Assembly (NCBI GenBank): GCA_011050465.1
Contig: DRFQ01000001.1
Coordinates: forward strand, 114,860 to 178,859
DNA from: Candidatus Nealsonbacteria bacterium
Lineage (GTDB): Bacteria; Patescibacteriota; Minisyncoccia; Minisyncoccales; RBG-13-36-15
DNA length: 64,000 nucleotides
Direction: 5' to 3'
The notes beneath the pieces are model-generated. The model was not told the DNA's origin and did not search any database. It worked only from the letters and a program-made list of their open reading frames with translations. Made by a program: the position numbers and the translations under genes. Of the stretch, positions 2,263-43,955 are shown in pieces. How positions within the stretch are numbered: position 1 is the stretch's first letter; every line of letters starts with the position of its first letter.

Positions 2263-3342
2263 ATGAATAACGATTTAATTGAAATTGACGGATCTATTGG
2301 TGAAGCTGGCGGCCAAATATTAAGGACAGCTGTGGCTTTGGCGGCAGTAACTAAAAAACCCTGCCATGTATTTAATATTCGAGAGGGCAGGCCAAAGCCG
2401 GGGTTAGCAACCCAACATCTTTTGGGAATTCAGGCCTTAGCTCGGCTCTGTGATGGAAAATTAGAAGGAGATTATCTGGGTTCAGAAGAAATTAAATTCT
2501 ATCCAGGTGAAGTTTACAGAGGCCGGGCCTCTGTTAATATTACTACTGCAGGAAGTATAGCTTTGGTTTTGCAAGCTTTAATTTTGCCGGCTTTGTTCGC
2601 CCCAGAACCAATTAAAATTTATTTTGACGGTGGATCTACCGACACCTTTTTCTCTCCAACCATTGACCATTTCCGCTATGTATTTTTAAAAATCTTAGAA
2701 AAGATGGGGATGAAAATAGAGATAAATATAATCAGACGAGGTTTTTATCCTGAAGGTGGTGCAAAAGTTGAAGTTATAGTTCATCCCCTCCTTCGGCAAG
2801 CCCGCCTGCCGGCGAGGCAGGGTTCCGGCGGGCAGGCCTCTAAACTAAACAGTGTGAATTTAATTGAAAGAGGTAAGCTTAAAAAAATTACAGTAACTTC
2901 AGGCGCTTCAGAATTTTTACAAGACAAAAAGGTAGCTGAAAGGCAATTAGCTGGAGTAAAAGAAATTTTAGGAAAATTAAAATTGTCCCTTGAAGAAAAA
3001 ATTGAATATTATCAAACTTCCTGTCCGGGAAGCCAAATCTGCTTAATTGCTGAATTTAAAAATACAGTCATTGGGACTGATAATTTGGGGAAATTAGGGA
3101 AAAGAGCTGAAGATGTCGGCAAAGAAGCTGCTTTAGAATTATTAAAAGAACAAAAATCTGAAGCTTGTTTAGATAAACATTTAGCCGACCAAATTTTACC
3201 CTATATGGCTCTTGCCAAAGGCAAATCCCAAGTAACCGTCTCAGAAATAACCGATCACTGCAAAGCCAACATCTGGGTAATTGAAAAATTCATTGATGGA
3301 AAGTTTAAGATAGATGGTAATTTAATATCTTGGAGTCCATAA
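2263..3342 (+). CDS. rtcA: RNA 3'-terminal phosphate cyclase
   Basis: 359 aa; N-terminal 'IEIDGSIGEAGGQILRTAVALAAV' RtcA signature. Confidence 0.8.
   Translation: MNNDLIEIDGSIGEAGGQILRTAVALAAVTKKPCHVFNIREGRPKPGLATQHLLGIQALARLCDGKLEGDYLGSEEIKFYPGEVYRGRASVNITTAGSIALVLQALILPALFAPEPIKIYFDGGSTDTFFSPTIDHFRYVFLKILEKMGMKIEINIIRRGFYPEGGAKVEVIVHPLLRQARLPARQGSGGQASKLNSVNLIERGKLKKITVTSGASEFLQDKKVAERQLAGVKEILGKLKLSLEEKIEYYQTSCPGSQICLIAEFKNTVIGTDNLGKLGKRAEDVGKEAALELLKEQKSEACLDKHLADQILPYMALAKGKSQVTVSEITDHCKANIWVIEKFIDGKFKIDGNLISWSP
2785..2840. repeat. GC-rich palindromic mini-insertion in frame within rtcA
   Basis: About 56 bp at roughly 75% GC inside an AT-rich gene. Near-palindrome gcccgcctgccgg / ccggcgggcaggc. 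Encodes 'LLRQARLPARQGSGGQAS', an extra loop relative to typical RtcA. Confidence 0.45.
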
Positions 3343-3364
3343 AAAATATTGTCTGTTGGGATAA

Positions 3365-3392
3365 AAAAGCCCGCGCTAAAGCGCGGGCTTTT
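3365..3392. terminator. Bidirectional intrinsic terminator
   Basis: aaaagcccgcgctaaagcgcgggctttt: perfect GC stem with flanking A/T runs, between convergent genes. Confidence 0.7.
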
Positions 3393-3414
3393 ACAATCTC
3401 TTGCTAAAAATTTA

Positions 3415-3470
3415 CGGAACTTGCCCCGTGGTCCTGAGGTCATCGAAGGATTTTACGGGGAAAACCGAAA
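3415..3470. repeat. Short copy of the GC-rich 'GTCCTGAG ... TCGAAGGATTT' repeat family
   Basis: ccccgtggtcctgaggtcatcgaaggattttacgggg; CCCCG/CGGGG ends; same core as the 26020-26060 and 19897-19960 copies. Confidence 0.35.
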
Positions 3471-9831: not shown

Positions 9832-11079
9832 TTAAAAAAGGGTTTTTTGGCGAGATGAAAGTTTTTTTCCTTCCTCTCCAAAAATCTTAATTTTCCCGTA
9901 AACACCATCGTAACCAGGTTCAATTTGAATTTTTCCTCCCCTAACCTTTACGATGCCTTCGCCGATTTCAGGTAAAGTGGCGGCTCTAAGGTCTGATTCG
10001 GAAACTTCAAGTAAAATATTCAATTCGTTACCGAATTTTTTAATCAGATTATTATATTCTTGAATTCCTTGCTTTGTTCCGGGTGAAACGCCCAGGGCAT
10101 CGGCAATTATTTCTTCTAGAGGAATAAGGCTCTTGAAAGGAATTGCATTTTCTGGTTTAAATCCTGCTTTTCTGTCGGCCAACTGCTCAACTCGATTTAA
10201 AACCCCAATTGTTAAAGGTTTTCTGCAGTTCGGGCAAATATTATTATACTTTTTTGTTTCTTGGGGATGAATATTAACCTGACAGTTTCGATGACCATCG
10301 TAATGGTATTTTCCTTCTTGAGGAAAGAATTCAATTGTGTAAAGAAATTTTTGAGGGTTTCTGGATTTTATAGCCTCTATAATTGCAGGATAACTAATTT
10401 CGGTATCAAAAACATTTGCCTCCCGGCCTATTTTTGCCGGACTATGGCTGTCGCTATTTGAAATCAAGGTAATCTTGTCTAGGGCTGACAATCGCCAGTT
10501 CATTTCAGGGTCTGAAGACAATCCTGTTTCTAGGGCGAAAATATATTTTGAATATTCCTCGAAACACTCTTCAATTGAGTCAAAACCAGAACGAGAACCA
10601 AAGAGGCTAAACCAGGGCGTCCAAATATGTGCCGGCACTATGAAACAACTCTCTGATACATCTAGAACAATCTTCGCCAACTCTTTGGCGTCTAGACCCA
10701 GAATTGGCCGGCCATCGGATTTTAAATTACCGATCCAACCAAGATGAGTATTAATTTTTTCAACGGCCTCAAAGGAAGGAGCAAAAACTATAATATGAAT
10801 CTTCCGAACTCTTTCTTTTTTAGAATAGATGCAGCTAATTTCGGTAGTCAGAATAAATCTTGTTTCTGAATGATTAGTTTTTAGCCGAAATAAACTTTCT
10901 TCAGCCGGCTCCAGCTTCTCTTTTAAGTTTTTAAACCATTCAGGATGAGTGAAATCCCCTGTGCTTAAAACCCTAATTCCCTTTATCTTTGCCCACCTAT
11001 CTAGGTTCTCCAGGTCCATATTCTTGGAAGTGGCTCGAGAATATTTAGAATGAAGATGAAAATCAGCAATAAATTTCAT
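9832..11079 (-). CDS. PHP-domain nuclease, endonuclease-Q-like (TIGR00375-type)
   Basis: 415 aa; N-terminal 'ADFHLHSKYSRA' PHP metal-binding motif and C-terminal zinc finger 'CPNCRKPL'. Confidence 0.5.
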   Translation of the reverse strand: MKFIADFHLHSKYSRATSKNMDLENLDRWAKIKGIRVLSTGDFTHPEWFKNLKEKLEPAEESLFRLKTNHSETRFILTTEISCIYSKKERVRKIHIIVFAPSFEAVEKINTHLGWIGNLKSDGRPILGLDAKELAKIVLDVSESCFIVPAHIWTPWFSLFGSRSGFDSIEECFEEYSKYIFALETGLSSDPEMNWRLSALDKITLISNSDSHSPAKIGREANVFDTEISYPAIIEAIKSRNPQKFLYTIEFFPQEGKYHYDGHRNCQVNIHPQETKKYNNICPNCRKPLTIGVLNRVEQLADRKAGFKPENAIPFKSLIPLEEIIADALGVSPGTKQGIQEYNNLIKKFGNELNILLEVSESDLRAATLPEIGEGIVKVRGGKIQIEPGYDGVYGKIKIFGEEGKKLSSRQKTLF

Positions 11080-11080
11080 A

Positions 11081-11272
11081 CCCCGTAGGAAGTTAAATAT
11101 TTTCCGTTGTTATTATATTTAGACCCTCTAAACAATTTTCTAATCATAGTGATTGATATAAAAAGGTTTTTGGATAGAAAATATTTGAGTTTTTATATAT
11201 GCCTCGAAGAAACTTACTTTTTATATTCTGTCTCGTTTTATCGACGAAAACCTTCTGTTTTCCTGCGGGCAT
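11081..11272. mobile_element. MITE-like repeat, copy B (TIR CCCCGTAGGAAG ... TTCCTGCGGGC)
   Basis: Same ends and shared internal blocks as copy A (ccccgtaggaaRttaaatattttccgttgttat; cgacgaaaaccYtctgtttYcctRcgggcata). Again begins 2 bp after the ATG of the adjacent minus-strand gene; junction 'cataccccgtagga' identical in both copies. Confidence 0.6.
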
Positions 11273-11339
11273 ATTTTTCCCTCTTTCATTTATATCATTT
11301 CTTGCATTAAAAAGAAATAAATAAAACCCGTTTTAATAA

Positions 11340-11880
11340 CGGGCGGAGGAATAGCTTTGTTTGGTCTTCTTTAAGGCTCTTGGCTGCTTTTTCTCGTAAC
11401 TCTTTCTTCAAACCATCTTAGGCAAGTTAAAATTATAATCGCAAAAGGTAACAAAAATGGCGGTCCAGTAAAGTTTTACGGCTACGGCCACCCCAATGCC
11501 CGCAGCAACCCAAAGACCAGTAGTAGTGGTTAGGCCTTCAACATGAAATTGTCGATAGATAATTAGACCGGCCCCAATAAAACCCACCCCCAAGACAATT
11601 TAACCAATTATCCGCGAAGGATCAAAATTAACACCAGACTTATCCCAAAACATTGCAGAAGCTTAAAAAGCAACAATTACAAATAAAGCTGCGCCCAGAG
11701 AAACCAGACTATACGTTCTCAATCCGGCTTCTTTTCTTTTATACTCCCGCTCTAGTCCCACTAGAGCTCCAAGAAAAGCAGCAAGTAGTAATTGAAAAAC
11801 AATTTGAATTTAGGGATTTTCTAAAAACCCAGCCACATATTAAACACTAATTTTAATCACTAATTATCGCGAATAAATTA
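11340..11880 (-). pseudogene. Degraded MgtC/SapB-family gene
   Basis: Minus-strand translation gives 'DPSRIIG*IVLGVGFIGAGLIIYRQFHVEGLTTTTGLWVAAGIGVAVA', the conserved MgtC core, interrupted by an in-frame TAA and further stops upstream. Only 61-aa and 65-aa ORF fragments survive. Confidence 0.5.
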
Positions 11881-11922
11881 TCAGCAGTTACTCGTGATTG
11901 AAATCCGTGCTTCTATTAGTGA

Positions 11923-12183
11923 TTACACTTTATAAACCGAATAACCCTCTCGAATCTTTTGTTCCACCTTTAAGCCAACAGATTCTCCAGTTTTAGCCTC
12001 GTCGACTTTTTGGTGTTCAACTTCCATCGATTCAACGCTCTGAGTAAAATCAATTTCTCCGCCAACTATTCGGATGTTATCGCCAGCCTTTAAAGTATCG
12101 GAAAGTTTAATTACCGCTACTCCAATTTTTCCAAAATAGTGAGTAATTTTACCTATTAATTGGCCTTCAATTTTTTCTGGCAT
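11923..12183 (-). CDS. Hypothetical small beta-rich protein
   Basis: 86 aa ORF with plausible composition; no motif recognised. Confidence 0.4.
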   Translation of the reverse strand: MPEKIEGQLIGKITHYFGKIGVAVIKLSDTLKAGDNIRIVGGEIDFTQSVESMEVEHQKVDEAKTGESVGLKVEQKIREGYSVYKV

Positions 12184-12312
12184 ATTTTTTTTAAAAATTA
12201 GCTATTATCTCGTCGACCTCGGGCCTTGTTCTGGTGTTTCTCTTTGTCAATAAGTTTAATTAATTTTTTGACTAGTTTTTTAGGATCTTTCTCATAAATA
12301 TTTTTTTTACCG

Positions 12313-12370
12313 CCCCCGAAAAGGGCCAGTTATTGTTCACGAAAATCCTTGTGTCTTCCTACGAGGCATA
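12313..12370. repeat. Internally deleted/partial copy of the CCCCGTAGGAA MITE
   Basis: cccccgaaaagggccagttattgttcacgaaaatccttgtgtcttcctacgaggcata matches the 3' arm of copy A (cacgaaaaccctcttgtttcctacggggcata). Confidence 0.4.
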
Positions 12371-12632
12371 TTTCTAAAGATATATTAATATTTTTATTAT
12401 AACAAATGTAAAAAAAATAAATAGGCGTTAGATAACACCTACTTATTTTTGAGGGGGAGCAGTCTTAACAAACTCGGTTTGCGCCTTAGGCTGGACGGAC
12501 AATTAGCCAGGGATATCCTTGATAACCTCCTTCATTAAGTTCCGCCTGTCCTTTGAGAATAAAATCTCGCACCCCCTCAATTCTTTATCTTAGTTTTTTA
12601 AAAATATCTGTCAAGAAGTGTTAAAGGCTACC

Positions 12633-12654
12633 TTATCCACATTCTATCCACAGT
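12633..12654 (+). promoter_or_regulatory. Pair of DnaA-box-like 9-mers (TTATCCACA and cTATCCACA) in direct orientation
   Basis: ccttatccacattctatccacag: one perfect consensus DnaA box and one with a single mismatch, 12 bp apart, in a 500-bp non-coding AT-rich stretch. Confidence 0.3.
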
Positions 12655-12720
12655 TTTTTATAGGTGCTTGGAAATTGTATTCTCAGTAAGAATTTTCACC
12701 CCGCACCAGATGCTTTTTAA

Positions 12721-12790
12721 TTATTGTACCACGAGGGGAGTCGAACCCCTGTCTCAGGCTCCGGAGGGCTACATAGCACTTGTCCCGCAC
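12721..12790 (-). tRNA. tRNA-like 3' fragment / pseudo-tRNA
   Basis: Minus strand carries a canonical T-arm (AGGGG-TTCGACT-CCCCT) followed by the acceptor 3' strand CGTGGTA-C. No complementary 5' acceptor strand, D-arm or proper anticodon arm can be found upstream. Confidence 0.3.
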
Positions 12791-12801
12791 TAAATTTAAT
12801 G

Positions 12802-12875
<74 letters not shown>

Positions 12876-12973
12876 ATATTGGTGAGGGTATCCAATTAAG
12901 CTATAGGGACTCTTTTTTATTATACCTTAATGAAGTTATATTCAAAAAGGCCCTCAGATAGGTTGATGTTGTA

Positions 12974-14075: not shown

Positions 14076-15845
14076 ATGAAGAAAAGTAAACTAGCCCCAA
14101 AGGACCGAGCACTCAACACTTTGAGTGCTCGGCCTACGAGGCAGGCAGTTAAAGAATTAATTAAAGCTCGAGTTAAAACTTTGGCCGATTTAGCTAAGGT
14201 GAAAAGAAAAATAGCTAAAAAATACAAAACATTCTGTCTGGCCAATGTTGAACTCTTGAAAGCATATCATAAATTACTGAAAGGCAAAAGGATAAAAGAG
14301 AATAAGATTTTAGAAGAATTACTGCGAATAAGAAGAGTGCGCTCTCTGTCCGGGATAGCGGTAATTTCTGTTTTAACCAAGCCTTATCCTTGCCCCGGCC
14401 ATTGCCTTTATTGTCCTACCCAAGATGGCATTCCAAAGAGCTATTTGGACAATGAACCGGCTGTAATGAGGGCAATTTTGAATAAATTTGATCCTTATCT
14501 CCAGGTTAAAACACGGCTTAAATCCCTAAAATTAACCGGCCACCCAACAGATAAAATTGAATTAATAGTCATTGGAGGAACTTGGTCATATTTACCGAGA
14601 AAATATCAAGCCTGGTTCGTTAAAAGGTGCTTTGATGCTTGCAATAAATATGTTTCAAAAAATTTAGAAAGAGCTCAAAAAATAAACGAGAGGGCAAAAC
14701 ATAGAATCATCGGTATTACATTAGAAACTCGGCCAGACTATATCAATAAAAAAGAAATTGAAAGAATGAGGAAACTCGGAGCAACCAGGGTGGAAATGGG
14801 AGTTCAAAGTCTTTATGATAATGTTTTAAAAATAAATCAGCGGGACCATAAAGTAGAAACAGTTATTAAGGCAACTAAGCTTTTAAAAGACGCTGGTTTT
14901 AAGATCTGCTACCATATGATGCCAAATCTTCCTGGCTCGGATTTAAAAAAAGACAAAAAAATGTTTCAAGAATTATTTTCGAACCCTGATTTTCAGCCAG
15001 ATCTTTTGAAAATTTATCCCTGTGTTGTCTTAAAAGAAGCTCAACTTTATAAGCTATGGCAAGTTGGGCAATATAAACCCTACAACATTCACCAATTAAT
15101 AAAGCTTTTAAAAAATATTAAAAAGAGAATTCCATACTATTGTCGGATTCAAAGGCTAATTAGAGATATTCCTTCTCAAAGTATTATTGCGGGCTGTAAG
15201 ACCTCTAATTTACGTCAGATCATCTTTAAAGATATGAAAAAAGAAGGCTGGAAATGCCGTTGTATAAGATGTAGAGAGATAAGAGAAGCATACGACCCAA
15301 AAACGAAACTTTATCTTTTTAGAAAAGATTATGATGCTTCCGGAGGAAAGGAGATTTTTTTAAGCTATGAAGAAAAAAACCGCAAAAAGCTTTATAGTCT
15401 TTTGCGGTTAAGAATTCCTTCCTGCGTTCCTCCTTCGTCAAAGACTACGGAAGGATACAGTAAAACTTCGGAGGGCAGGCCTTCTCAAAAACATTTTTTG
15501 CCGGTTTTACAAAATGCGGCCATTATCAGAGAAGTCCACACTTACGGCCAGCTTGTTCCGATTTCTGAAAGCAAAACCGCCCCTCAACACCGGGGCCTTG
15601 GCAAAAAGTTAATTAAAACAGCTGAAAAAATAGTTTACACTGAGTTTGGTCGAAGTGCTAAAAATGAATTTGGCTTTCGCCCCCACACCAAACGAAGACA
15701 GGACACCAAGATTAGTAAAATTAGTCCTCGTTATGGTGTGGTGGGGGTAAAAAAAATAGCAGTAATTTCTGGAGTAGGAGTAAGAAATTATTGGCGGAAA
15801 TTAGGCTATCAATTAGAAAACGATTATATGGTAAAAAATCTATAA
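14076..15845 (+). CDS. elp3: Elp3-family radical-SAM / GNAT acetyltransferase (tRNA wobble-uridine modification enzyme homologue)
   Basis: 589 aa; 'VISVLTKPYPCPGHCLYCPTQ' Elp3-type radical-SAM cysteine motif; 'TLETRPDYI' and 'RVEMGVQSL'; C-terminal GNAT 'IAVISGVGVRNYWRKLGY'. Confidence 0.75.
   Translation: MKKSKLAPKDRALNTLSARPTRQAVKELIKARVKTLADLAKVKRKIAKKYKTFCLANVELLKAYHKLLKGKRIKENKILEELLRIRRVRSLSGIAVISVLTKPYPCPGHCLYCPTQDGIPKSYLDNEPAVMRAILNKFDPYLQVKTRLKSLKLTGHPTDKIELIVIGGTWSYLPRKYQAWFVKRCFDACNKYVSKNLERAQKINERAKHRIIGITLETRPDYINKKEIERMRKLGATRVEMGVQSLYDNVLKINQRDHKVETVIKATKLLKDAGFKICYHMMPNLPGSDLKKDKKMFQELFSNPDFQPDLLKIYPCVVLKEAQLYKLWQVGQYKPYNIHQLIKLLKNIKKRIPYYCRIQRLIRDIPSQSIIAGCKTSNLRQIIFKDMKKEGWKCRCIRCREIREAYDPKTKLYLFRKDYDASGGKEIFLSYEEKNRKKLYSLLRLRIPSCVPPSSKTTEGYSKTSEGRPSQKHFLPVLQNAAIIREVHTYGQLVPISESKTAPQHRGLGKKLIKTAEKIVYTEFGRSAKNEFGFRPHTKRRQDTKISKISPRYGVVGVKKIAVISGVGVRNYWRKLGYQLENDYMVKNL
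15680..15747. repeat. In-frame palindromic insertion in elp3 (CCCCCACACCAAACGA ... TCGTTATGGTGTGGTGGGGG family)
   Basis: Inverted-repeat arms cccccacaccaaacgaag / ctcgttatggtgtggtggggg inside the GNAT domain add about 35 aa ('EFGFRPHTKRRQDTKISKISPRYGVVGV'). The same element family occurs intergenically at 34131-34207. Confidence 0.45.
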
Positions 15846-19528: not shown

Positions 19529-19794
19529 ATTTTGATATACCCTGTTATTTTACTCGATTTCTTTAAAAATGAAAAGCCCCAAAGTAGAACAAAGTTCACT
19601 TCGGGACTAGTCCCGCACCGAGATTTGCTCTGGTGAGGGGGCCGTGAAAACACGGCAACATTTGGCTAAAATAGTCTATTGAATTTATTGGAGCATTTTT
19701 TCGCTTTTCTTAATTCTGCTTTAATTTTCTTTAAAACTTCCGCAATAAACTCTTTTCTGTTTTCAGTTTTTTGAAGATCAACGAAGTTCATATG

Positions 19795-20035
19795 TCAAAA
19801 AGTCGCTCGCTCTCCTCCAGTCTTCTCGCCTCGTCTTCGCCTCGGTGAAGCGGGCGACTGGCGCCATTCGGTCTTCGGGCTCACTCCTTAGAAACCCTCG
19901 GCACTTCGTCCTGAGCCCTTCGGCAGTGAGCTCAGGACGAATCTGCTCAGTATCGAAGGATTTCTGGCGTTTCTGCCTCAACGGCAGAAGCCTGTTTTTT
20001 TTCACCCCCCCCACCTTTCGAGGTGTTGACAATGT
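19795..20035. repeat. Composite GC-rich repeat region (GTCCTGAGC hairpin family)
   Basis: Perfect 12-bp inverted repeat ttcgtcctgagc/gctcaggacgaa, plus gtatcgaaggatttct and aagcctgtttttttt blocks shared with 26020-26060, 3420-3470, 40560-40600 and 16600-16640. The 84-aa ORF predicted across it is considered spurious. Confidence 0.4.
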
Positions 20036-23608: not shown

Positions 23609-25834
23609 ATGAGATTTAAACTTTACTCAAAGTTCAGACCTACGGGCGGTCAGCCCAAGACAATCGAAAAGTTAACAAGAAATTTAAAGGCTGGGGTCCG
23701 CCATAATGTTTTATTAGGAGTAACAGGCTCTGGGAAAACAGCTATTATGAGTTGGATTATAGAAAAAATTCAAAAACCCGTGCTTTTGATAGTGGCCAAT
23801 AAAACCTTGGCCGCTCAATTATATCAAGAGTTCAAGGAATTTTTCCCAAAAAATGGCGTCCATTATTTTGTCTCCTACTATGATTATTATCAGCCGGAAG
23901 CCTACATCCCCCAAACAGATACATATATTGAAAAGGACGCTAAAATCAACGAAGAAATCGACAGATTAAGGCACGCTGCCATCCAGGATTTGTTGAATAG
24001 ACGAGACTGTGTTGTGATAGCCTCTGTCTCTTGTATCTATAATATCGGTTCTCCTAAGGTCTATCGAAAAGTATCCTTAGAAATTAAGTCTGGCCAAAAA
24101 ATTAAGAGGAGAACATTTTTAAAACACCTAACCGGCCTACGGTACCAGAGGAACGATATTGATTTTAAACCCGGATCATTCCGAGTCAGGGGGAATATTG
24201 TTGATATTTATTTGGTCACCGGAGAGAAGATTTTAAGAATAGAATTCTTGGGCGATAAAATAAATAATACTTTCATTACACCCGCCGCTTTGGCTCCTGG
24301 GTACCCACTGTTCGCACACAGTAAAGCACTGAACGCTAAATACCAACTTTTTCCTGCTCATTTTTGGGTTACTCCTCAAGAAAAACTGAATATTGCCATT
24401 GAAAATATAAAATTAGAGTTACAAGAAAAGTTAAAAGAATTCGGCAAGAAGAATAAAGAAGCTCCCGCCCTAAAAGGGCGAGGCTCGCTCAATTTGGTTG
24501 AGCGGCAAAGATTAGAACGACGAACAAAATATGATTTAGAAATGTTAAAAGAATCTGGTTTCTGTCATGGAATTGAAAATTATTCAAGGCATCTCGAATT
24601 TAGAAAGATTGGGGAACCGCCCTATACTTTGATGGATTATTTCTCTAAAGATTTCTTAATTTTTATCGACGAATCGCACTTGACCATACCTCAATTAAAA
24701 GCTATGGCGATCCAAGACAGAGCAAGAAAAGAAACTTTAATCGAACACGGCTTCAGACTTCCTTCGGCAGTTGATAATCGTCCGTTAACATTCGAAGAAT
24801 TTAATAAAAAGGCGGGCCAAATAATCTATTTTTCGGCTACTCCTAATAAATACGAGATAGAAAAAACTCTTCGACCCATTCAATCAATTCCCGTTCGAGG
24901 GCCTGAGCGGCCCCTCAGGGCCAGTCGAAGGCAGGGTCACCCCGAAGACCTTGAATGGCGACAATCCAAGGGTAAACTAGATAAAAAACTCGACACCAAA
25001 GCAAAGCACGGCGCCGAATCAGCCCGAGAATTAAACAAAATTTCCCCTCGGCCCGAGGACATTCGACCGAGCTCAGCCGAGGACCTCGGGACGAAGGCTG
25101 GTACGGAACACATCGTTGAACAATTAATTAGGCCAACTGGTCTCTTAGAGCCATCGATTGAAATTAGACCAACCAAGAATCAAGTTAAAGATTTAATTAA
25201 AGAAATCAAGAAAATGGTCGGGAAAAAACAAAGAACACTGGCCTTAACCTTGACCAAAAGATTAGCAGAAGATCTATCGGGTTATTTAACTGAAGAAGGA
25301 GTTTTGAGCCAATGGCTTCACTCAGAGATTAAAACATTAGAAAGACCGCAGATTCTAAAAGGTTTAAGAGAGGGAAAATATGATGTCTTGGTGGGAATTA
25401 ATCTTTTGAGGGAAGGCTTAGATTTACCAGAAGTAGCTTTGGTGGCTATTTTAGACGCTGATAAAGAAGGTTTTTTGAGGTCGAAAACCACCTTAATCCA
25501 AACAATGGGCAGGGCAGCCCGTCATCTCAATGGTCATGTTATTTTATATGCCGATAAAATCACCCGTTCTATACAAGAAGCAATTCAGGAAGTTAAAAGA
25601 AGACGGAAAATTCAGATGGAATATAATATGATTCACAAAATCACCCCTGCTCCAATTATAAAAGAAATTAGAGAATGGCCTTTTGCTAAAAAAGAGGCGA
25701 TTAAGTCTGAGTTTTGGTTAATTCAGGATAAAAAACTTTTAGAAAAAGAGATGGAAATAGCGGCTAAAAACTTAGATTTTGAAAGAGCGGCTAAAATTAG
25801 AGACCTAATCGAAAAGATTAAAAATAAAAAATAA
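23609..25834 (+). CDS. uvrB: Excinuclease ABC subunit B (UvrB) carrying an in-frame insert of about 80 aa
   Basis: 741 aa; 'GVTGSGKT', 'YFVSYYDYYQPEAY', 'VEQLIRPTGLLEP', C-terminal UVR 'LEKEMEIAAKNLDFERAAKIRD'. Insert lies between 'YEIEKT' and 'EHIVEQLIRPTGL'. Confidence 0.9.
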   Translation: MRFKLYSKFRPTGGQPKTIEKLTRNLKAGVRHNVLLGVTGSGKTAIMSWIIEKIQKPVLLIVANKTLAAQLYQEFKEFFPKNGVHYFVSYYDYYQPEAYIPQTDTYIEKDAKINEEIDRLRHAAIQDLLNRRDCVVIASVSCIYNIGSPKVYRKVSLEIKSGQKIKRRTFLKHLTGLRYQRNDIDFKPGSFRVRGNIVDIYLVTGEKILRIEFLGDKINNTFITPAALAPGYPLFAHSKALNAKYQLFPAHFWVTPQEKLNIAIENIKLELQEKLKEFGKKNKEAPALKGRGSLNLVERQRLERRTKYDLEMLKESGFCHGIENYSRHLEFRKIGEPPYTLMDYFSKDFLIFIDESHLTIPQLKAMAIQDRARKETLIEHGFRLPSAVDNRPLTFEEFNKKAGQIIYFSATPNKYEIEKTLRPIQSIPVRGPERPLRASRRQGHPEDLEWRQSKGKLDKKLDTKAKHGAESARELNKISPRPEDIRPSSAEDLGTKAGTEHIVEQLIRPTGLLEPSIEIRPTKNQVKDLIKEIKKMVGKKQRTLALTLTKRLAEDLSGYLTEEGVLSQWLHSEIKTLERPQILKGLREGKYDVLVGINLLREGLDLPEVALVAILDADKEGFLRSKTTLIQTMGRAARHLNGHVILYADKITRSIQEAIQEVKRRRKIQMEYNMIHKITPAPIIKEIREWPFAKKEAIKSEFWLIQDKKLLEKEMEIAAKNLDFERAAKIRDLIEKIKNKK
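24870..25110. repeat. GC-rich palindromic insertion, in frame, inside uvrB
   Basis: Two GC-rich modules (cgagggcctgagcggcccctcagggccagtcgaagg; cccctcggcccgaggacattcgaccgagctcagccgaggacctcggg) flank an A-rich spacer. Contains short palindromes ctcggcccgag and cgaggacctcg. Shares GTCGAAGG / GAGCTCAG blocks with the intergenic GC-rich repeats. Confidence 0.45.
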
Positions 25835-25992: not shown

Positions 25993-26106
25993 CGATTTCC
26001 CCCGACCCCTCTCTTTTAGACACCCACGGCACTTCGTCCTGAGCTCAGTGTCGAAGGATTTCTAACTCTCACTCACTCCGTTCGTTTTCCTCCACGGGGG
26101 AAATCG
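25993..26106. repeat. GC-rich element with CGATTTCCCCCG / CGGGGGAAATCG terminal inverted repeat
   Basis: 12-bp perfect TIR; interior ccccgacccctctcttttagacacc...cttcgtcctgagctcagtgtcgaaggatttctaac... homologous to 16541-16640 and to the 19897-19960 hairpin. Confidence 0.45.
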
Positions 26107-27538: not shown

Positions 27539-28459
27539 TCATTTTTGGCATTTAGGACAGAAATGAGCACTTCTTCCTGCCAACTTTATCCGTTTTATTT
27601 TTGTACTACATCTGGGACATTTTTCTCCGTCTTTGCGATAAACTTTCCTAACTTTACCGAAAGATCCTCTTTTTCCCTCAAGGTCTCTAAAATCAGAGAT
27701 CGATGTTCCTCTAAGCTCAACTGCTTTTTTAAGAATTTTCTTAATTGCCTGATAAATTCTTTTTAATTCTGCTAAAGTTAGTCTTGGAGCTTCTTTAAGG
27801 GGACGAATTTTTGCCTCAAACAATATTTCATCAGAATAAATATTGCCAATTCCGGCAATTACTGTCTGATCCATTAAAATTTGTTTAATTTTCCTTTTTT
27901 CTTTCTTTAGGATTTCTTGGAATTTTTGAAAGGTAAAAGACTTCGCCAGGGGTTCTGGCCCCAAGCCTGTGAACTCTTTAGATTCTTTTAATTCTTGGCT
28001 ATTCCATAGTTCAACTTTGGCAAACTTCCTTAAATCAGAAAGGGCAAGCTGTTTAGGAATAGACAGATGATATTTATTGTCTAACCAAAAAATTAGGTGT
28101 AAAAATCGGTTTATAGGATCTTCTAATGGTCCTGGCTTGATTGGTCTCCAAGCTTTAACTTCTCTTTCCCAATCTCCTAAAAGTAAGTGGCCGGTTAATT
28201 TTTGGTGGATTAGAAGGGTTTTGCCCTCCGAAAGCTCAAAGAGAATATTTTTCCCTCTTCTCCAGACTTTTTTAATCTTTTTACCTTTGATCTCTTTCTT
28301 GAATTTCTTAAAACTATCTGGTCTTTTTACTTGTCCACCGAAGCCTTGGCGAAGGTGGATCATTTTCTTCCAGTCGGTCCAAACATCAACAAAGGCCCTA
28401 CCAAGGACCTTTCTGTTTAAATCACGGACAATAGTTTCCACCTCGGGAAGTTCCGGCAT
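27539..28459 (-). CDS. mutM: Formamidopyrimidine-DNA glycosylase (Fpg/MutM; Fpg/Nei family)
   Basis: 306 aa; 'MPELPEVETI' catalytic N-terminus, H2TH region, C-terminal zinc finger 'CPRCSTKI...GRSAHFCPKCQ'. Confidence 0.8.
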   Translation of the reverse strand: MPELPEVETIVRDLNRKVLGRAFVDVWTDWKKMIHLRQGFGGQVKRPDSFKKFKKEIKGKKIKKVWRRGKNILFELSEGKTLLIHQKLTGHLLLGDWEREVKAWRPIKPGPLEDPINRFLHLIFWLDNKYHLSIPKQLALSDLRKFAKVELWNSQELKESKEFTGLGPEPLAKSFTFQKFQEILKKEKRKIKQILMDQTVIAGIGNIYSDEILFEAKIRPLKEAPRLTLAELKRIYQAIKKILKKAVELRGTSISDFRDLEGKRGSFGKVRKVYRKDGEKCPRCSTKIKRIKLAGRSAHFCPKCQK

Positions 28460-28464
28460 CTCTT

Positions 28465-31812: not shown

Positions 31813-31819
31813 ATTTTTT

Positions 31820-32554: not shown

Positions 32555-32560
32555 AATTTT

Positions 32561-33502: not shown

Positions 33503-34089
33503 TGGGAAGTGTATTCGTGAGAAGGGTCACCTCTAAACATACACTTTGTTTCTTTAGTAACTACTCCTTGTTCTACGAATAGAAGAACTCTTTCAATAAA
33601 TCCTTCAAGGTATATACAAAAAATAGGGTCAATCTTAAAATCCTTTAAATGAAGGGCCATTTCTTTGTTTTCTTCATCAAATTTCAGCACTTCCATTTCT
33701 CCTATTGTATAATGTTCTTTCCAGTCTGAAGGGATTTCTTTGACTAATTTTTTTAATGGAGCAAAAAGCTTGAAGATAAATTTTACTAGAAAAGAAAATT
33801 TAGGAGCTCTCTTGCCTATTTCTCTTATCTCTGAATCTGTCCAGTCGAAGGTATCTTTAATAAGTAAAAGCGAAATTATTCTTAAACCGACCGGGTGCCA
33901 ATCTGTTGCTTTTCCCGACCTATAATCTATGTCATAACCTAAATCCTTAACCCGCTTTTCTAGTTTCTGAAGACCCTCTTCGCCTTCTTTTGCTAAAACA
34001 TTTTTAGCATCAGTTTGGAAAACTGCACCTCTGACTTTACCCTTAATTTCTATTAATTTATCTAATTTTTCTTTTGTTATTTTTTCCAT
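33493..34089 (-). CDS. V4R/DUF2378-like putative ligand-binding protein (paralogue of 31210-31812)
   Basis: 198 aa; paralogous blocks as above. Confidence 0.3.
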   Translation of the reverse strand: MEKITKEKLDKLIEIKGKVRGAVFQTDAKNVLAKEGEEGLQKLEKRVKDLGYDIDYRSGKATDWHPVGLRIISLLLIKDTFDWTDSEIREIGKRAPKFSFLVKFIFKLFAPLKKLVKEIPSDWKEHYTIGEMEVLKFDEENKEMALHLKDFKIDPIFCIYLEGFIERVLLFVEQGVVTKETKCMFRGDPSHEYTSQWK

Positions 34090-34130
34090 GGTTTTAATTT
34101 TTAAAAGTTTTTAATTTTCTCGACCTTTAC

Positions 34131-34207
34131 CCCCCCCACACCAAACGAGGACTGGATTTGGTCAATTTAGGCGCCTTCGGCGCCGTATCCTCGTTTGGTG
34201 TAGGGGT
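34131..34207. repeat. Palindromic element CCCCCCCACACCAAACGAGGA ... TCCTCGTTTGGTGTAGGGG (intergenic copy)
   Basis: 19-bp terminal inverted repeat enclosing the ggcgccttcggcgcc hairpin; same family as the in-frame insert in elp3 (15680-15747). Confidence 0.45.
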
Positions 34208-34225
34208 TTTCCAAACAGATATTTT

Positions 34226-35101
34226 TTATCTGCTCGATGATTTTTTAAGAGCTTTTTCTAATTTCTCAATTTCTTTTTTAAGCGCTCTCATTTTTAGCTC
34301 CCGGCCAACAGCTACTTTGCGGAATCTCTCCAGTTCCACTATCCTTTTTGTCAATTCCTTTCTTCCACCCTCTAACTCCCTTGTCCTTTCTCTAACTTTC
34401 TCTTCCAGGCTTTCTCTTTCCTCCGAAAGCTCCTCTGTCCTAGCCCTCACCCGAATTTCTAAAGAAGCCCTTTCTTCTTTGAGCATCTCTTTTGTTTTTT
34501 GTAGTACCTTAATTTTCTCTTGTAAAAATTTATAAAAAGTATCGCCGTAATAACCAAAAAGCCAGAAGAAAATAATAGCCGCTATCCAAGCGGAAAATGC
34601 ATAAGGGAAATTTTGAGGAATCCTTTCTTCTAAAGAAAAACTGGATTGGAGAGGCAAAATTTCTAAATATTGAACAATGACCAATGCGGTATATAAAAAA
34701 GAGCAATAGAAAATAAAAAAAAGTGAGTAAATTCTGGGAAAGAGTAAAAAGCCAGTATAGATATAAAGACCATAAAAAATAAACCCAAGCCAGGTTATTC
34801 CGCCAACAAGATAAATAACTATAGATAAAATAATTACATCAAAAAGCAGGTAACCAAAATAACCATTAACAATTTGAGAGCTTTTAGGTTCTTTAATCTG
34901 CCTAAAGAGAAAGTCATAAATAATTGTTGAGATAAGCATAAACGAAATAAGAAAAAATAATAAGTTAGGGGAGGAAACGTTAAAAGAAACTTTTAAAATA
35001 AAAGCGGCGAAAAGAAAAGCAGTCATTGCCGGAAACCTAATATTTATCAACTGATCGTATCTTCGTAAAGCCTCCTCTTTTTCAATGAAAAATTGGGCCA
35101 T
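34226..35101 (-). CDS. Polytopic membrane sensor (about 6 TM) with coiled coil and 'VGRELKM' tail
   Basis: 291 aa; 'EERASLEIRVRARTEEL' signalling-helix motif; C-terminal 'FRKVAVGRELKMRALKKEIEKL'. Confidence 0.55.
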   Translation of the reverse strand: MAQFFIEKEEALRRYDQLINIRFPAMTAFLFAAFILKVSFNVSSPNLLFFLISFMLISTIIYDFLFRQIKEPKSSQIVNGYFGYLLFDVIILSIVIYLVGGITWLGFIFYGLYIYTGFLLFPRIYSLFFIFYCSFLYTALVIVQYLEILPLQSSFSLEERIPQNFPYAFSAWIAAIIFFWLFGYYGDTFYKFLQEKIKVLQKTKEMLKEERASLEIRVRARTEELSEERESLEEKVRERTRELEGGRKELTKRIVELERFRKVAVGRELKMRALKKEIEKLEKALKKSSSR

Positions 35102-35115
35102 GTTTTAATTTATTT

Positions 35116-35976
35116 TTACTTTTTTCTTTTTTTAAGTCTTTCGATTTCTCTTTTTAACTGAGTCATCTTTAATTCTCTGCCAACCGTTAGCTTGTGAAAC
35201 TCTTCTAATTCTCCAACCCTCTTTGTTAGTTTTTCTCTTCCTCTTTGTAACTCCCTTGTCCTTTCTTTAACTTTCTTTTCAAGGCTTTTTCTTTCTTCCC
35301 AGAGCTCTTTTGTCCTGGCCCCGACCCGAATTTCTAGAGATGCCCTTTCTTCTTCGAGTATTTTTTGGGTTTTTTGGAGTCCTTCAATTTTTTTCTGCAA
35401 CATTTTATAAAAGACATCGCCGTAAAGACCCAAAATCAAGAGAAAAATGACAGCCACCGCCCAAGAAGCTACTACATAATTCAAATTTTGAGGAACCATT
35501 TCTTCTGAGGAAAAAATGTATCGATAAGGTAAAATTTCTAAATATTGAACAATGACCAATGTGGTATATAAAAAAGAGCAATAGAAAGTATAAGAAATAG
35601 AGTAAATCCTGGGAAAGAGTAAAAAACCAAAATAAATATAAAGACCATAATAGATAAAGCCGGTCCAGGTTACTCCGCCAATAATATAAATAATTATGGT
35701 TAAAGTAATTGTATCGAAAAGCAGGTAACCAAAATAACCACGAATGATCTGAGAGGTTTTAGGTTCTTTAATCTGCCGAAAGAGAAGGTCGTAAACAATT
35801 GTTGAGATGGCTATAAGGCAAATAAAGAAAAATACAGGATCTGGAAAATGAATCTTGAAAAATATTTTTAAAATAAGGACAAGGAGAAGGTAAGCACTGA
35901 CTGCCAAAAGTTTAATATTTATCAGTTGATTGTATCTTATCAGGGTTTCTTCTTTTTTAATGAAAGTTTCTGCCAT
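35116..35976 (-). CDS. Paralogue of 34226-35101 (polytopic membrane sensor with 'VGRELKM' tail)
   Basis: 286 aa; near-identical TM core 'LFRQIKEPK(S/T)SQI(V/I)(N/R)GYFGYLLFD', C-terminal 'FHKLTVGRELKMTQLKREIERLK'. Confidence 0.55.
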   Translation of the reverse strand: MAETFIKKEETLIRYNQLINIKLLAVSAYLLLVLILKIFFKIHFPDPVFFFICLIAISTIVYDLLFRQIKEPKTSQIIRGYFGYLLFDTITLTIIIYIIGGVTWTGFIYYGLYIYFGFLLFPRIYSISYTFYCSFLYTTLVIVQYLEILPYRYIFSSEEMVPQNLNYVVASWAVAVIFLLILGLYGDVFYKMLQKKIEGLQKTQKILEEERASLEIRVGARTKELWEERKSLEKKVKERTRELQRGREKLTKRVGELEEFHKLTVGRELKMTQLKREIERLKKRKK

Positions 35977-36055
35977 TTTTATTTTTTTTAACTTTCGAGT
36001 TTTAAAACTTTAAAGAATGGAGGTTGACTTTATTTTAACAGAAATAAAGAAATTC

Positions 36056-40353: not shown

Positions 40354-40525
40354 GCCCCCCACCTATTTTACTGCTCAATCTTAAGTCTAACCAAAATACA
40401 CAAAATAGAGGGGTAAAATTCCGGAAACACACTCTCATGAACAGTAAGGTTCACCTTCGGTGGACTGGCTGATTCATCCACCGTGTGCCGCCAGTATATC
40501 AGCTGGCAAAATAGGTGGGGGGGGC
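40354..40525 (+). ncRNA. Candidate structured RNA closed by a 16-bp terminal helix (identity unknown; 6S/SRP-like size)
   Basis: GCCCCCCACCTATTTT ... AAAATAGGTGGGGGGGGC flank about 140 nt containing mutually exclusive hairpins (CACC-TTCG-GTGG versus GGTGGA...TCCACC) and GCCAG-tatatca-CTGGC. The segment CGTGTGCCG...AGCTGGCA resembles the 3' half of 4.5S RNA, but the GGAAGCAGCC domain-IV motif is absent. Confidence 0.25.
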
Positions 40526-40630
40526 TTGACAGCCAGGGGCCTTTTTATTTTTAGAAAGAGACTCGTCCTGAGTTTGTCGAAGGAGTTTACCTTGAACTTA
40601 CTGAAGGGTTGCCTCGGGAAATAAAAACTG

Positions 40631-42600: not shown

Positions 42601-42604
42601 AATT

Positions 42605-43336
42605 ATGTCAGGCCATTCGCATTGGAAAAGTATAAAACACAAAAAAGGGATCGCCGACAAGGCGAAAAGTAAGGTTTTCTCGAAGCTTTCTCAGGCAATC
42701 TCGATTGCGGTCCAAGAAAAAGGGCCAGATCCAGAAACAAATTCTAAATTAAGGTTAGCTATAGAAACGGCGCGTTCTTTTAGTTTACCGAGAGATACTA
42801 TTGAACGTGCGATCAAAAAAGGAAGCGGCGAGCTTGAGGGAAAAAAATTAGAACCGATAACCTTTGAAGCTTATGGCCCCGGCGGAATCGCTATTATCGT
42901 CGAGAGTATTACCGATAATAAAAACCGTACTGTAAACGAAATTAAGCAAATTCTAAATCAGAACAACGGGAAACTTGCCGATGCTGGCGCGGTAAAGTGG
43001 CTCTTTGAAAGGAGAGGAATCATCACCCTACGAATTACGAATCAGTACGAATATACAAATAAAGAAGATCTAGAATTAAAAGTGATTGAGGCGGGGGCCG
43101 AAGATATTACTTGGAATAATAACGCCCTGAATATTTACACAAAAATTGAAGATTTCGATAAGGTTAAAAAAAACCTTGAAAGTCAGGAAATCAAGATAGA
43201 ATCCGCCTCTCTGGACTGGGTGGCTAAAGAGAATGTCCAGACCGCGCAAAAATACAAAGAAGCAACTGAAAAATTATTTGCGGCCTTAGACGAATCAGAT
43301 AGCGTTCAAGAAATATATTCAAACCTTAAAGTTTAA
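42605..43336 (+). CDS. yebC: YebC/PmpR-family transcriptional regulator
   Basis: 243 aa; 'MSGHSHWKSIKHKKG' N-terminus and three-domain YebC architecture; contains the 32-nt TACGAAT repeat in frame. Confidence 0.85.
   Translation: MSGHSHWKSIKHKKGIADKAKSKVFSKLSQAISIAVQEKGPDPETNSKLRLAIETARSFSLPRDTIERAIKKGSGELEGKKLEPITFEAYGPGGIAIIVESITDNKNRTVNEIKQILNQNNGKLADAGAVKWLFERRGIITLRITNQYEYTNKEDLELKVIEAGAEDITWNNNALNIYTKIEDFDKVKKNLESQEIKIESASLDWVAKENVQTAQKYKEATEKLFAALDESDSVQEIYSNLKV
43024..43055. repeat. TACGAAT-repeat segment inserted in frame in yebC
   Basis: accctacgaattacgaatcagtacgaatatac is identical over 32 nt to intergenic 58678-58709. Encodes 'TLRITNQYEYT', an extra loop relative to typical YebC. 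Confidence 0.5.
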
Positions 43337-43410
43337 TTGTTAAACTGTTACATTGTTATAGTGACTTCAATTGAACAATGTGACAATATAACAATGTAGT
43401 AATGTAATAA
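43330..43410. promoter_or_regulatory. Inverted array of 8-bp WAAWTGTT units upstream of ruvC
   Basis: aattgttaaactgttacattgttatagtgacttcaattgaacaatgtgacaatataacaatgtagtaatgtaataatgg; contains the 11-bp inverted repeat acattgttata / tataacaatgt. Confidence 0.3.
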
Positions 43411-43955
43411 TGGTAATATTAGGTATTGATCCCGGAACGGCTAAAGTGGGATATGGAGTGATTAGAAAAATCCAAAACCCACCGAACCGAACGAAGTTCG
43501 GGACTCCCCGTAGGGTTGCATCTAAAACTCAATATGGATTAAAATGTTTGAGTTATGGATTAATTCAAACTAGTTCTTCTTCGCCTCCGGCTGAGCGTTT
43601 AAAAAAAATAAGCCAAGAGTTGGGCCAGTTAATAAATAAATACCGGCCAGAGATTTTGGCCGTTGAAAATGTTTATTTCTTTAGAAACTTAAAAACTGCT
43701 CTACCCGTTTCTCAGGCTAAAGGGGTAATTTTACTCGCTGCCGCTAATCACAATATTCCGGTTTACGAATTTACTCCTTCACAGGTAAAAATGGCGGTGG
43801 TGGGATACGGTCGGGCCGAAAAAAGACAAGTCCAAGAAATGGTTAAAATCTTACTTAATTTAAAAGAGCTGCCCCGTTCAGATGACGCAGCAGACGCACT
43901 TGCGATAGCAATCTGTTACACGATTTCCCCTCAAGAACAATATCTTGCGAAGTAA
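43410..43955 (+). CDS. ruvC: Crossover junction endodeoxyribonuclease RuvC with an in-frame insert of about 20 aa
   Basis: 181 aa; 'ILGIDPGTAKVGYGVI', 'AVENVYFF', 'AKGVILLAAA', 'DAADALAIAICY'. Insert 'QNPPNRTKFGTPRRVASKTQYG' is encoded by the GC-rich stretch 43468-43510. Confidence 0.85.
   Translation: MVILGIDPGTAKVGYGVIRKIQNPPNRTKFGTPRRVASKTQYGLKCLSYGLIQTSSSSPPAERLKKISQELGQLINKYRPEILAVENVYFFRNLKTALPVSQAKGVILLAAANHNIPVYEFTPSQVKMAVVGYGRAEKRQVQEMVKILLNLKELPRSDDAADALAIAICYTISPQEQYLAK
43468..43510. repeat. GC-rich palindromic mini-insertion in frame within ruvC
   Basis: cccaccgaaccgaacgaagttcgggactccccgtagggttgc: palindrome ccgaacgaagttcgg plus the CCCCGTAGGG motif that matches the MITE TIR. 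Confidence 0.4.

Follow-up and report, generated by a model that had tools for sequence, protein, structure and literature searches.

Can short palindromic repeats colonize protein-coding genes outside Rickettsia and leave these genes readable? The question is raised by a stretch of 64,000 nucleotides (nt), hereafter the window, from a Nealsonbacteria-like member of the Patescibacteria, on a 385.5-kb contig recovered in a marine-sediment metagenome. In this DNA, the genes rtcA, elp3, uvrB, yebC and ruvC, whose identities are all confirmed by Pfam, had been predicted to carry mostly GC-rich palindromic segments that keep the reading frame and add loops to the encoded proteins, in the manner of Rickettsia palindromic elements (RPEs). 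A large part of bacterial diversity belongs to the Patescibacteria, or candidate phyla radiation (CPR), whose small genomes are generally taken to be streamlined. The core of the original prediction, that several families of hairpin repeats lie in frame in conserved genes, is supported and turns out to be more general than first seen. With a probability of about 0.7, Patescibacteria harbor several families of short (∼30–95 nt), non-autonomous hairpin elements that are copied into A/T-rich DNA in and between genes, the surviving genic copies being translated as extra protein loops. The RPE-like interpretation is supported for uvrB, for elp3 and for an additional gene, fpg.

The window is AT-rich, with a GC content of ∼37% that ranges from 0.32 to 0.47 along its length, and in all five genes the flagged segments are in frame and stop-free at the positions claimed. 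Alignments with orthologues and solved structures delimit inserts in uvrB, ruvC, rtcA and elp3. The GC content reaches 0.77 in the rtcA segment, 0.56 in the main uvrB insert and 0.61 in the ruvC core, versus 0.37–0.41 in the host genes. Palindromic character, judged by a fold z-score that expresses hairpin energy relative to shuffled sequence, holds for elp3 and for a small uvrB insert, but not for rtcA, ruvC and yebC. In-window BLAST gives significant DNA copies within 64 kb for two flagged segments only, those of elp3 and yebC, and chance-level 10–16-mers for the rtcA, ruvC and main uvrB inserts; the repeat link of uvrB comes instead from cross-genome comparison and composite motifs. Rfam searches of the window and the element regions, at gathering and permissive thresholds, return only a tRNA-Arg and one chance miRNA-like match, and the insert peptides, concatenated as one query against an index of 5.8 billion proteins, gave six candidates, none of them scored.

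In uvrB, the predicted insert of ∼80 amino acids (aa) is found as 81 aa between YEIEK and IVEQLIRPTGL, at the junction of helicase domain 1 and domain 3. Alignment with Bacillus UvrB yields two blocks that leave query residues 420–500 unmatched, and the insert is missing from most orthologues. The insert is composite, built of repeat modules that are nested or decayed. The GTCGAAGG/GAGCTCAG blocks, correctly recognized beforehand as common to the insert and to intergenic repeats, are part of a composite motif, CCTGAG..TCGAAGG, which has five copies in the window (one in uvrB, four intergenic) versus 0.02 expected from shuffling; the same family forms the C-terminal tail of UvrB in a relative (L005). 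Another module is a degenerate copy of a double-hairpin family, labeled PSTRAK, detected by the covariance model R1 with 21.4 bits (E 0.009) at 24989–25053 in the window and with 37.6 bits (E 1.7e-6) in the corresponding insert of a sister genome (L003). Extra GC-rich DNA is nested in the window copy at ∼25043–25095, and its ends encode TKAKHGA...AGT, like the intact L005 element. The sister shares the central core only, at ∼83% identity, with differing GC-rich blocks on either side, and the insert is unchanged in a 99.7%-identical strain.

A second, smaller insert of uvrB, missed by the original prediction, covers residues ∼283–296 at the tip of a helical hairpin (fold z −2.9). Its DNA is identical over 43/43 nt at the same site in a syntenic relative (L004), whose UvrB has 62% identity by BLASTP and 76% over aligned columns. 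Third codon positions are identical at 15/15 sites in the element versus 0.27–0.73 in the flanks, and because the flanks have diverged at these positions, the identity is a property of the element and not of a long recombination tract. Close relatives also differ at the insert sites. Comparison with the sister genome, which had been proposed as a check, reveals uvrB DNA that is 91–98% identical in the flanks and 38–62% identical, with gaps, exactly at both insert sites; at the small site the element is missing and other DNA is present. No presence/absence difference at the uvrB inserts separates the window from the 99.7%-identical strain.

Copies of these elements are thus near-identical across genes and genomes of strongly diverged sequence. 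It had been reasoned beforehand that lineage-specific protein features would be conserved as amino acids and diverge synonymously as DNA. For uvrB, elp3 and yebC the opposite is found: the insert DNA is near-identical between genomes or genes while third codon positions of the hosts are near saturation, so that this refutation of the repeat reading fails. At the level of DNA sequence, the repeat origin is demonstrated for elp3 and for the uvrB inserts, which contain representatives of three or more dispersed families.

Some protein sites have been occupied repeatedly by different elements. At the UvrB helical-hairpin tip (KK/LLEAQR), 59 of 74 scorable orthologues are without insert; among the inserts of the remaining 15, at least five distinct peptides occur, namely PSTRAK, EAPALKGRGSLN, PAVHTQG, TTIPARQ, YNPPSASSHSLCERAP and one Lys-rich stretch. 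The PSTRAK insertions at this tip and at the C-terminal site of L005 have an A-run before them and CTTTTRGAA after them. An AlphaFold model of UvrB built on a 12-sequence alignment is uninformative (mean pLDDT, the predicted local distance difference test score, of 45). A further peptide, YNPP[ST]ASS[RH]SL[RC]ERAP, occurs as an insert in a UvrB (P0083) and in the Mur ligase gene of L004 (at the equivalent of window position ∼21736), hence in a pair of unrelated genes from different genomes; the encoding DNA has a GC content of 0.75, and it looks like a further in-frame repeat family.

The PSTRAK family provides the broadest view of how such elements are distributed. A pattern search through one genome per species, with a pattern that itself demanded the first hairpin, gave 16 matches in 14 loci, nearly all of them labeled as Patescibacteria lineages. 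The consensus of 66 nt forms two tandem hairpins (fold z −6.7), whose stems covary: compensatory double changes affect eight pairs, 96% of cells are paired, and 0/500 shuffles attain the observed score. Four of the six frames are stop-free, and genic copies prefer one of them: 10 of the 12 copies in open frames longer than 200 aa read as PSTRAKLGAGLVPHRNEVSGAG (p ∼4e-5 if the frame is specified in advance, ∼1.5e-4 if any of the four open frames is allowed). Of the two other copies, that of L015 is located upstream of its gene's start codon. The hosts belong to nine unrelated protein families, i.e. PRPP synthetase, TatD, HDAC-like, PolX, PNPase, GT4 glycosyltransferase, Cdc48-like AAA ATPase, peptidyl-tRNA hydrolase and UvrB. 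Genic copies measure 66 or 72 nt, and the apparently non-coding ones (19576–19640 in the window and L016a) 65 nt. The intergenic window copy is 91–94% identical by BLAST to those of L005 and L007–L020, with 72 bits under R1 and a fold z of −4.3. Within L005 uvrB, two 100%-identical copies of ∼70 nt occupy two different sites, and comparison with empty sites in three genomes reveals a clean 66-nt insertion (AAAAAA/CCCAGCACC...GGTACGGGG/CTTTT), precise and devoid of target-site duplication. The element follows an A-run in each of the three uvrB events and in roughly half of 18 PSTRAK copies. A nested copy exists in L007, and a single-hairpin half-element lies in frame in the DUF763 gene of L004. 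The pattern has 0 matches in viral contigs and thus gives no sign of a phage vector.

The frame bias of PSTRAK copies bears on the idea that inserts are excised, either from mRNA by hairpin-guided cleavage and RtcB ligation or from protein in a mini-intein-like fashion. In favor of this idea, genes for RtcA, RtcB and an archease fusion lie in the window, and the elements form strong hairpins. Genic copies are nevertheless multiples of three, stop-free and concentrated in one frame, which would be needless if they were removed; their size is well below that of inteins or self-splicing introns, and no splicing endonuclease is seen, so that excision appears very improbable. Inteins and introns as such were rejected on the size of the inserts (10–81 aa), the frame bias and the lack of any such Pfam domain or Rfam intron family.

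The elp3 insert is real and in frame, but measures 30 aa, between residues 526 and 557, and not the ∼35 aa first estimated; it is missing from archaeal Elp3 structures (PDB 6IAZ) and from the Elp3 C-terminus of L005. Its core is a degenerate long hairpin at 15680–15747 with arms CCCCCACACCAAACGAAGAC and GTCCTCGTTATGGTGTGGTGGGGG (fold z −4.6). The proposed kinship with the intergenic element at 34131–34207 is confirmed, since the arms match over 29 nt at 93% and over 16 nt at 100%. That element is an intact copy with 19-bp arms and an inner GGCGCC hairpin (fold z −5.8), and has no credible Rfam match. Scanning Joint Genome Institute (JGI) metagenomes with a two-arm pattern gave seven loci with five distinct sequences, in which the stem is constant and the loops are variable; all lie in short open frames (at most 130 aa), apparently intergenic, on contigs of 43–56% GC, and the arms of the family, its terminal inverted repeats, span 19–26 bp. 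The existence of the hairpin family is thereby established; most of its members lie between genes, and elp3 holds a decayed one. A further ∼17–19 aa of Elp3, around residues 455–475 (15435–15494), shows no repeat features.

In rtcA, the predicted gain of 18 aa is reproduced as 16–18 aa around residues 177–195 with respect to PDB 4O89 and 1QMH. The insert differs sharply in GC from its gene (0.77 versus 0.39), folds no better than shuffles (z −0.6) and has no other copy in the window; no full copy was found elsewhere. A new case, in fpg, was not in the original prediction; this insert is missing from the Fpg of the syntenic relative and matches a copy in another genome (L010) over 26/29 nt, with a compensatory stem change from CCACC/GGTGG to CCGCC/GGCGG. 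Local DNA similarity of the rtcA insert to the fpg and L010 copies amounts to 13/15 nt (p ∼0.005–0.02) at the family start. With its peptide motif RQGxGGQ and an internal 21-nt expansion, the rtcA insert is probably an expanded member of this LRQGxGGQ hairpin family. Within the insert, 5 aa (15 nt) are missing from a near-identical RtcA variant (P0242), and one strain scaffold has an N gap exactly there. The gap would fit the view that the inserts are assembly or chimera artefacts at GC-rich hairpins. The same sequences are, however, recovered independently, in different samples and in JGI, European Nucleotide Archive (ENA) and NCBI assemblies. One instance is a 98-kb scaffold of the 99.7%-identical strain, from another sample, which carries identical uvrB inserts and 99.7% identity over 12 kb; moreover, sister contigs carry a homologous ruvC insert. 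This agreement rules out assembly artefacts, whose probability is close to nil.

The ruvC insert, predicted at ∼20 aa, adds 19 aa (residues 22–44) with respect to PDB 1HJR and the modal RuvC. The resulting hairpin spacing of 56, versus a modal 37, is the largest among 150 representative RuvCs; with respect to L024 the gain is 12 aa. The GC-rich core lies at 43482–43517 (PNRTKFGTPRRV). According to an AlphaFold2 (AF2) model (pLDDT 91), residues 21–43 are predicted as coil with pLDDT 63–69 on an intact core fold, and the insert is modeled as a disordered loop between β2 and β3. In keeping with the expectation that inserts fall in surface loops, the RuvC model places its insert at a hairpin tip, and for UvrB, RtcA and Elp3, PDB alignments place the inserts between conserved blocks. 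The putative terminal-inverted-repeat motif of a miniature inverted-repeat transposable element (MITE), CCCCGTAGG, is indeed present in ruvC, with four occurrences in the window versus 0.16 expected, but the other three lie in an unrelated ∼195-nt element, and the CCCCGTAGGG link of the insert rests on a 9–10-mer. A link between ruvC and the 58676 element through ends of the type ACCC.AC...GT.GGGT (2 observed versus 0.2 expected) was rejected as too weak. The insert evolves faster than the rest of the protein, with 7/16 variable columns among close variants. The ruvC insert is real, and its repeat origin, as far as its sequence tells, is unproven.

These observations touch on the view that the inserts are lineage-specific loop expansions, produced by local slippage or duplication, GC-rich through their Arg, Pro, Gly and Ala codons, and involving no mobile DNA. 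No second copy of the ruvC insert DNA was found, it folds like shuffles (z −0.7, not significantly palindromic), and its identity to the sister (∼90% at the DNA level) is about that of the flanks; other patescibacterial RuvCs have Lys-rich extensions of 9–11 aa at the same hairpin. The 15-nt variant of the rtcA insert is of the slippage type, and the second elp3 insert (15435–15494) is free of repeat features. Slippage does not explain why identical DNA turns up in several genes and genomes, why these sequences also have copies between genes, or why a clean 66-nt insertion is seen at sites that are empty elsewhere, and as a general explanation it is unlikely.

The yebC segment follows another logic. 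It does contain a 32-nt exact copy of an intergenic repeat, as claimed (43025–43056 = 58678–58709), but adds no loop. YebC has 243 aa, and 116 of 120 orthologues have 238–249 aa; at the flagged spot, the protein is at most 4–5 residues longer than distant homologues and equal in length to the 120 closest orthologues. The site holds unrelated sequence of equal length in the sister and in L024, i.e. the element replaces a loop of equal size rather than adding one. The genic copy has no stable fold (z 0.8, minimum free energy −0.6 kcal/mol), and the intergenic element, named TACGAAT array, bears an 8-bp terminal inverted repeat (AACCCTAC/GTAGGGTT). Other copies, likewise outside long ORFs, occur in the 40-nt holA–fpg spacer of L004 (13043–13077) and in L014 (304–346). 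A 33-mer of the yebC copy uses the same codons in the window, L023 and L025; between genomes, the element DNA is 89–94% identical versus 68–80% in the flanks, and third positions 0.83 versus 0.40–0.62. Of 120 YebC orthologues, 19 have the peptide LRITNQ at this position. The element may be an old insertion that conversion has kept uniform, or it may act as a functional DNA signal.

A wider version of the latter idea holds that all these elements are cis-acting signals under selection, whether protein-binding, promoter- or terminator-like, RNA-processing or DNA-uptake. Very high sequence conservation across species, covarying stems, the yebC peptide recurring at one position with unchanged length, and the TACGAAT array directly upstream of start codons in two genomes, where it resembles the periodic intergenic arrays of the window, would all fit. 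Host genes and insertion sites are unrelated, though, nesting and decay are seen among the copies, elements may be present in one genome and absent from its closest relative, no Rfam family matches, and the strong one-frame bias points to a protein-level filter rather than to a nucleic-acid function; selection on signals is accordingly an improbable account of the whole set. DNA uptake sequences (DUS), also called uptake signal sequences (USS), are motifs of 10–12 nt that reach very high genomic density and arise by point mutation. They were set aside here, the elements measuring 30–95 nt and being discrete insertions with respect to orthologues. The intergenic TACGAAT element itself lies directly upstream of the ATPase gene of a type-IV-secretion-like block (51340–59863), in which GC reaches 0.40–0.47, above the rest of the window, and whose genes encode a VirB4/TraG-like ATPase, a protein with type IV secretion system pilin and M23 peptidase parts, and a PrgI-like protein.

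The preferred reading thus remains that of dispersed families of hairpin elements with both genic and intergenic copies. Under this reading, only copies that keep the frame, are stop-free and fall in tolerant surface loops of essential proteins would survive; they would be translated as extra, mostly disordered and hydrophilic loops, and would then decay, slip and receive nested insertions. Translation of the elements is presumed, and horizontal spread between lineages is likewise presumed. Copying would most likely be ensured in trans by a hairpin-recognizing enzyme of the insertion sequence (IS) IS200/IS605 or repetitive extragenic palindrome (REP) type, or alternatively by short-patch gene conversion from other copies; as no mobilizing gene is found among the window open reading frames (ORFs) scanned, the copying mechanism is a conjecture. 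A bolder proposal, possible but with the odds leaning against it, is that Patescibacteria-wide hairpin families of ∼30–70 nt move horizontally and recurrently occupy the same codons of orthologous essential genes (the UvrB tip, the yebC loop), forming a standing, translated 'loop library' within their reduced proteomes; the site-preferring or conversion-like process that it invokes would explain why element DNA stays near-identical while host genes diverge to saturation.

Several points weigh against the reading in terms of mobile hairpin elements. Neither a transposase nor any other mobilizing gene appears among the scanned ORFs of the window. The ruvC insert has no second copy detected and no significant fold, the link of rtcA to its family, drawn from short matches, is only moderate, and yebC gains no length, which a simple insertion fails to explain. 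The frame statistic of PSTRAK rests on about a dozen events, and its first hairpin looks invariant partly through the requirement of the search pattern. Finally, the very high conservation of the elements across species could instead be due to a role of the motif in the cell, as DNA or as RNA.

Table. Host genes, inserts and repeat copies, in window coordinates unless another genome is named
Feature	Position	Strand	Basis
rtcA (RtcA)	2263–3342		Pfam
elp3 (Elp3-type radical-SAM/GNAT enzyme)	14076–15845		Pfam
uvrB (UvrB)	23609–25834		Pfam
yebC (YebC)	42605–43336		Pfam
ruvC (RuvC)	43410–43955		Pfam
rtcA insert, aa 175–193, PLLRQARLPARQGSGGQAS	2785..2841	+	PDB 4O89, 1QMH
elp3 insert, 30 aa, in GNAT/KAT domain	15651..15743	+	PDB 6IAZ, L005 comparison
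Intact intergenic copy of elp3 hairpin family	34131..34207		inverted repeat, 95% complementary
uvrB main insert, 81 aa	24866..25108	+	gap aa 419–501 in PDB alignment
CCTGAG..TCGAAGG module in uvrB main insert	24885..24947	+	composite motif
Degenerate PSTRAK copy in uvrB main insert	24989..25105	+	covariance model R1
Small uvrB insert, double-hairpin, NKEAPALKGRGSLNLVER	24452..24505	+	+12 aa vs PDB 2FDC
fpg insert, 10 aa hairpin, HLRQGFGGQV	28328..28357	-	indel scan vs syntenic relative
TACGAAT-array copy in yebC, TLRITNQYEYTN	43025..43060	+	32/32, 35/36 nt vs 58678–58713
Intergenic TACGAAT-array element, directly upstream of VirB4-like gene	58676..58724		sequence, fold z −4.4
ruvC insert, aa 21–43, tip of β2–β3 hairpin	43470..43538	+	PDB 1HJR
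PSTRAK intergenic copy, 65 nt, upstream of rtcB	19576..19640	-	BLAST, R1
CCTGAG..TCGAAGG intergenic copy, directly downstream of rtcA	3424..3460	+	motif at 3433
CCTGAG..TCGAAGG intergenic copy, long form with GCTCAGGACG hairpin	19900..19965	+	motif at 19910
CCTGAG..TCGAAGG intergenic copy, downstream of uvrB	26028..26063	+	motif at 26038
CCTGAG..TCGAAGG intergenic copy	40560..40590	+	motif at 40567
AT-rich arrays, period ∼8 nt	18041–18084, 28464–28555, 43337–43409, 49449–49483, 59371–59419; L020 3929–3977		

Other features of the window deserve mention. RNA-repair genes are clustered at 2263–3342 and 16600–21916 (rtcA, DUF763, rtcB and a Mur-ligase::archease fusion). In the Mur-ligase/archease/rtcB region of L005/L006 (3646–7306), archease and Mur ligase are separate genes, and a reverse-transcriptase ORF and a LAGLIDADG-like ORF suggest intron-type mobile elements in this neighborhood. 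A MITE-like unit of ∼195 nt occurs at 1165–1358 and 11077–11270 in the window and at 5254–5450 in L004, with 12-bp terminal inverted repeats (CCCCGTAGGAAA/TTTCCTACGGGG) and ∼70% column identity in a three-way alignment of its three copies; each abuts the start codon of a downstream minus-strand gene (ispG-like, the ORF 9832–11079, and rtcB in L004), and the unit could be a mobile 5′ leader or promoter cassette. AT-rich arrays of the TTAACAAT/ACAATGT type, with a period of ∼8 nt, fill several intergenic spacers; the yebC–ruvC spacer consists wholly of one such array, an imperfect palindrome, and these arrays may be promoter or operator arrays.

Between rpsT and holA (26458–26493), a perfect hairpin with 15-bp arms carries the 6-nt loop ATGAAC, which reads GTTCAT, its reverse complement, in the 99.7%-identical strain L034, a flip-flop inversion of the loop. 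The region 31200–36000 is a paralogous gene array (PAS-domain and unknown proteins) with a conserved 70-nt block at one end, present in five copies of 63–77% identity; it is fast-evolving, since its identity to L034 is only 76–93%, as opposed to 99.7% elsewhere. In an otherwise compact genome, 2.2 kb at 11100–13300 are without any ORF longer than 86 aa and contain tRNA-Arg(CCG) at 12801–12875 with an adjoining T-arm-like GGGGAGTCGAACCCC at 12735–12749, and nothing else by Rfam. Upstream of an LTD-domain gene (40355–40522), a perfect 15-bp inverted repeat (CCCCCCACCTATTTT/AAAATAGGTGGGGGG) surrounds 138 nt, has no Rfam match and may be a structured RNA or an element of new type.

If selfish hairpin elements do pervade the core repair and RNA-modification enzymes of CPR, this would provide a second bacterial case, independent of Rickettsia and spread over many species, of selfish DNA remodeling essential proteins. 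It would explain many lineage-specific inserts and length differences in CPR proteins, may explain some breaks in CPR assemblies, and the elements could serve as markers of horizontal exchange between CPR lineages. Recurrence at the same sites and identity across species make the question of copying directly testable, and LGAGLVPHR is a tryptic peptide predicted from insert translation.

How do these elements compare with known systems? A full-text search of open-access papers combining CPR, Patescibacteria or Parcubacteria with palindromic elements, MITEs or RPEs gave nothing relevant, although this does not prove the elements to be novel. Hairpin MITEs derived from IS200/IS605, known as palindrome-associated transposable elements (PATEs), and the REPs mobilized by REP-associated tyrosine transposases (RAYTs) have hairpins at their ends, make no target-site duplication and prefer short targets. 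The present elements likewise have a hairpin at each end, supported by covariation, lack duplications and follow an A-run in all three uvrB events; an A-run precedes about half of 18 copies. Unlike them, REPs are usually found outside genes and confined to one species, and no Y1 transposase is found in the window. With MITEs in general they share terminal inverted repeats (arms of 19–26 bp in the elp3 family, 8 bp in the 58676 element), but the L005 uvrB insertion shows no target-site duplication, and no transposase domain indicative of a parent IS occurs in the window ORFs scanned.

Mobile double-hairpin elements have reportedly been described by Paquin, Laforest and Lang in 2000 in chytrid and other fungal mitochondrial DNA. 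They share with PSTRAK the two-hairpin architecture, mobility and an intergenic location extending to variable parts of genes; they are mitochondrial and unrelated in sequence. GC clusters of yeast mitochondria make in-frame insertions in VAR1/rps3 (PMC4464245). Like the patescibacterial elements, they are GC-rich palindromes dispersed through an AT-rich genome, for the most part outside coding sequence; they are connected with recombination or gene conversion, and they alter protein size when located in a gene. Unlike them, they are organellar and affect one protein gene, whereas many genes are concerned here, in a free-living or episymbiotic bacterial lineage, and the sequences are unrelated. 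PARCELs (palindromic amphipathic repeat coding elements) are palindromic coding repeats distributed horizontally among small-genome bacteria (PMC2996958); there they form tandem intragenic arrays in surface proteins, as opposed to the single copies in housekeeping enzymes seen here.

The closest parallel is with RPEs, which passages of a 2024 MITE review present, after Ogata et al. 2000, as non-autonomous palindromic repeats of ∼100–150 bp with several families per genome and as the outstanding case of in-frame insertion, with CPR unmentioned in those passages (PMC10969869). The likeness is extensive: non-autonomous palindromic elements of several families per genome lie between genes and in frame in unrelated housekeeping genes, each family encodes a conserved peptide, and insertions are regarded as tolerable for the fold of the protein. 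PSTRAK is read as one peptide in nine unrelated families (10/12 copies in one frame), and stable hairpins, with z between −2.9 and −6.7, are found for elp3, the 34131 element, the small uvrB insert, the 19577 copy, the 58676 element and the PSTRAK consensus, and not for rtcA, ruvC and yebC. The differences are equally clear, since the elements measure ∼30–95 nt instead of ∼100–150 bp, belong to an unrelated phylum and to new sequence families, and are set apart by size and taxon from the Rickettsia families RPE-1 to RPE-10. Copies from many species are near-identical, nested or composite copies occur, the same protein site receives more than one kind of element, and the yebC element replaces a loop instead of adding one. 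The patescibacterial elements are thus RPE-like in behavior but constitute new, smaller and phylum-wide families.

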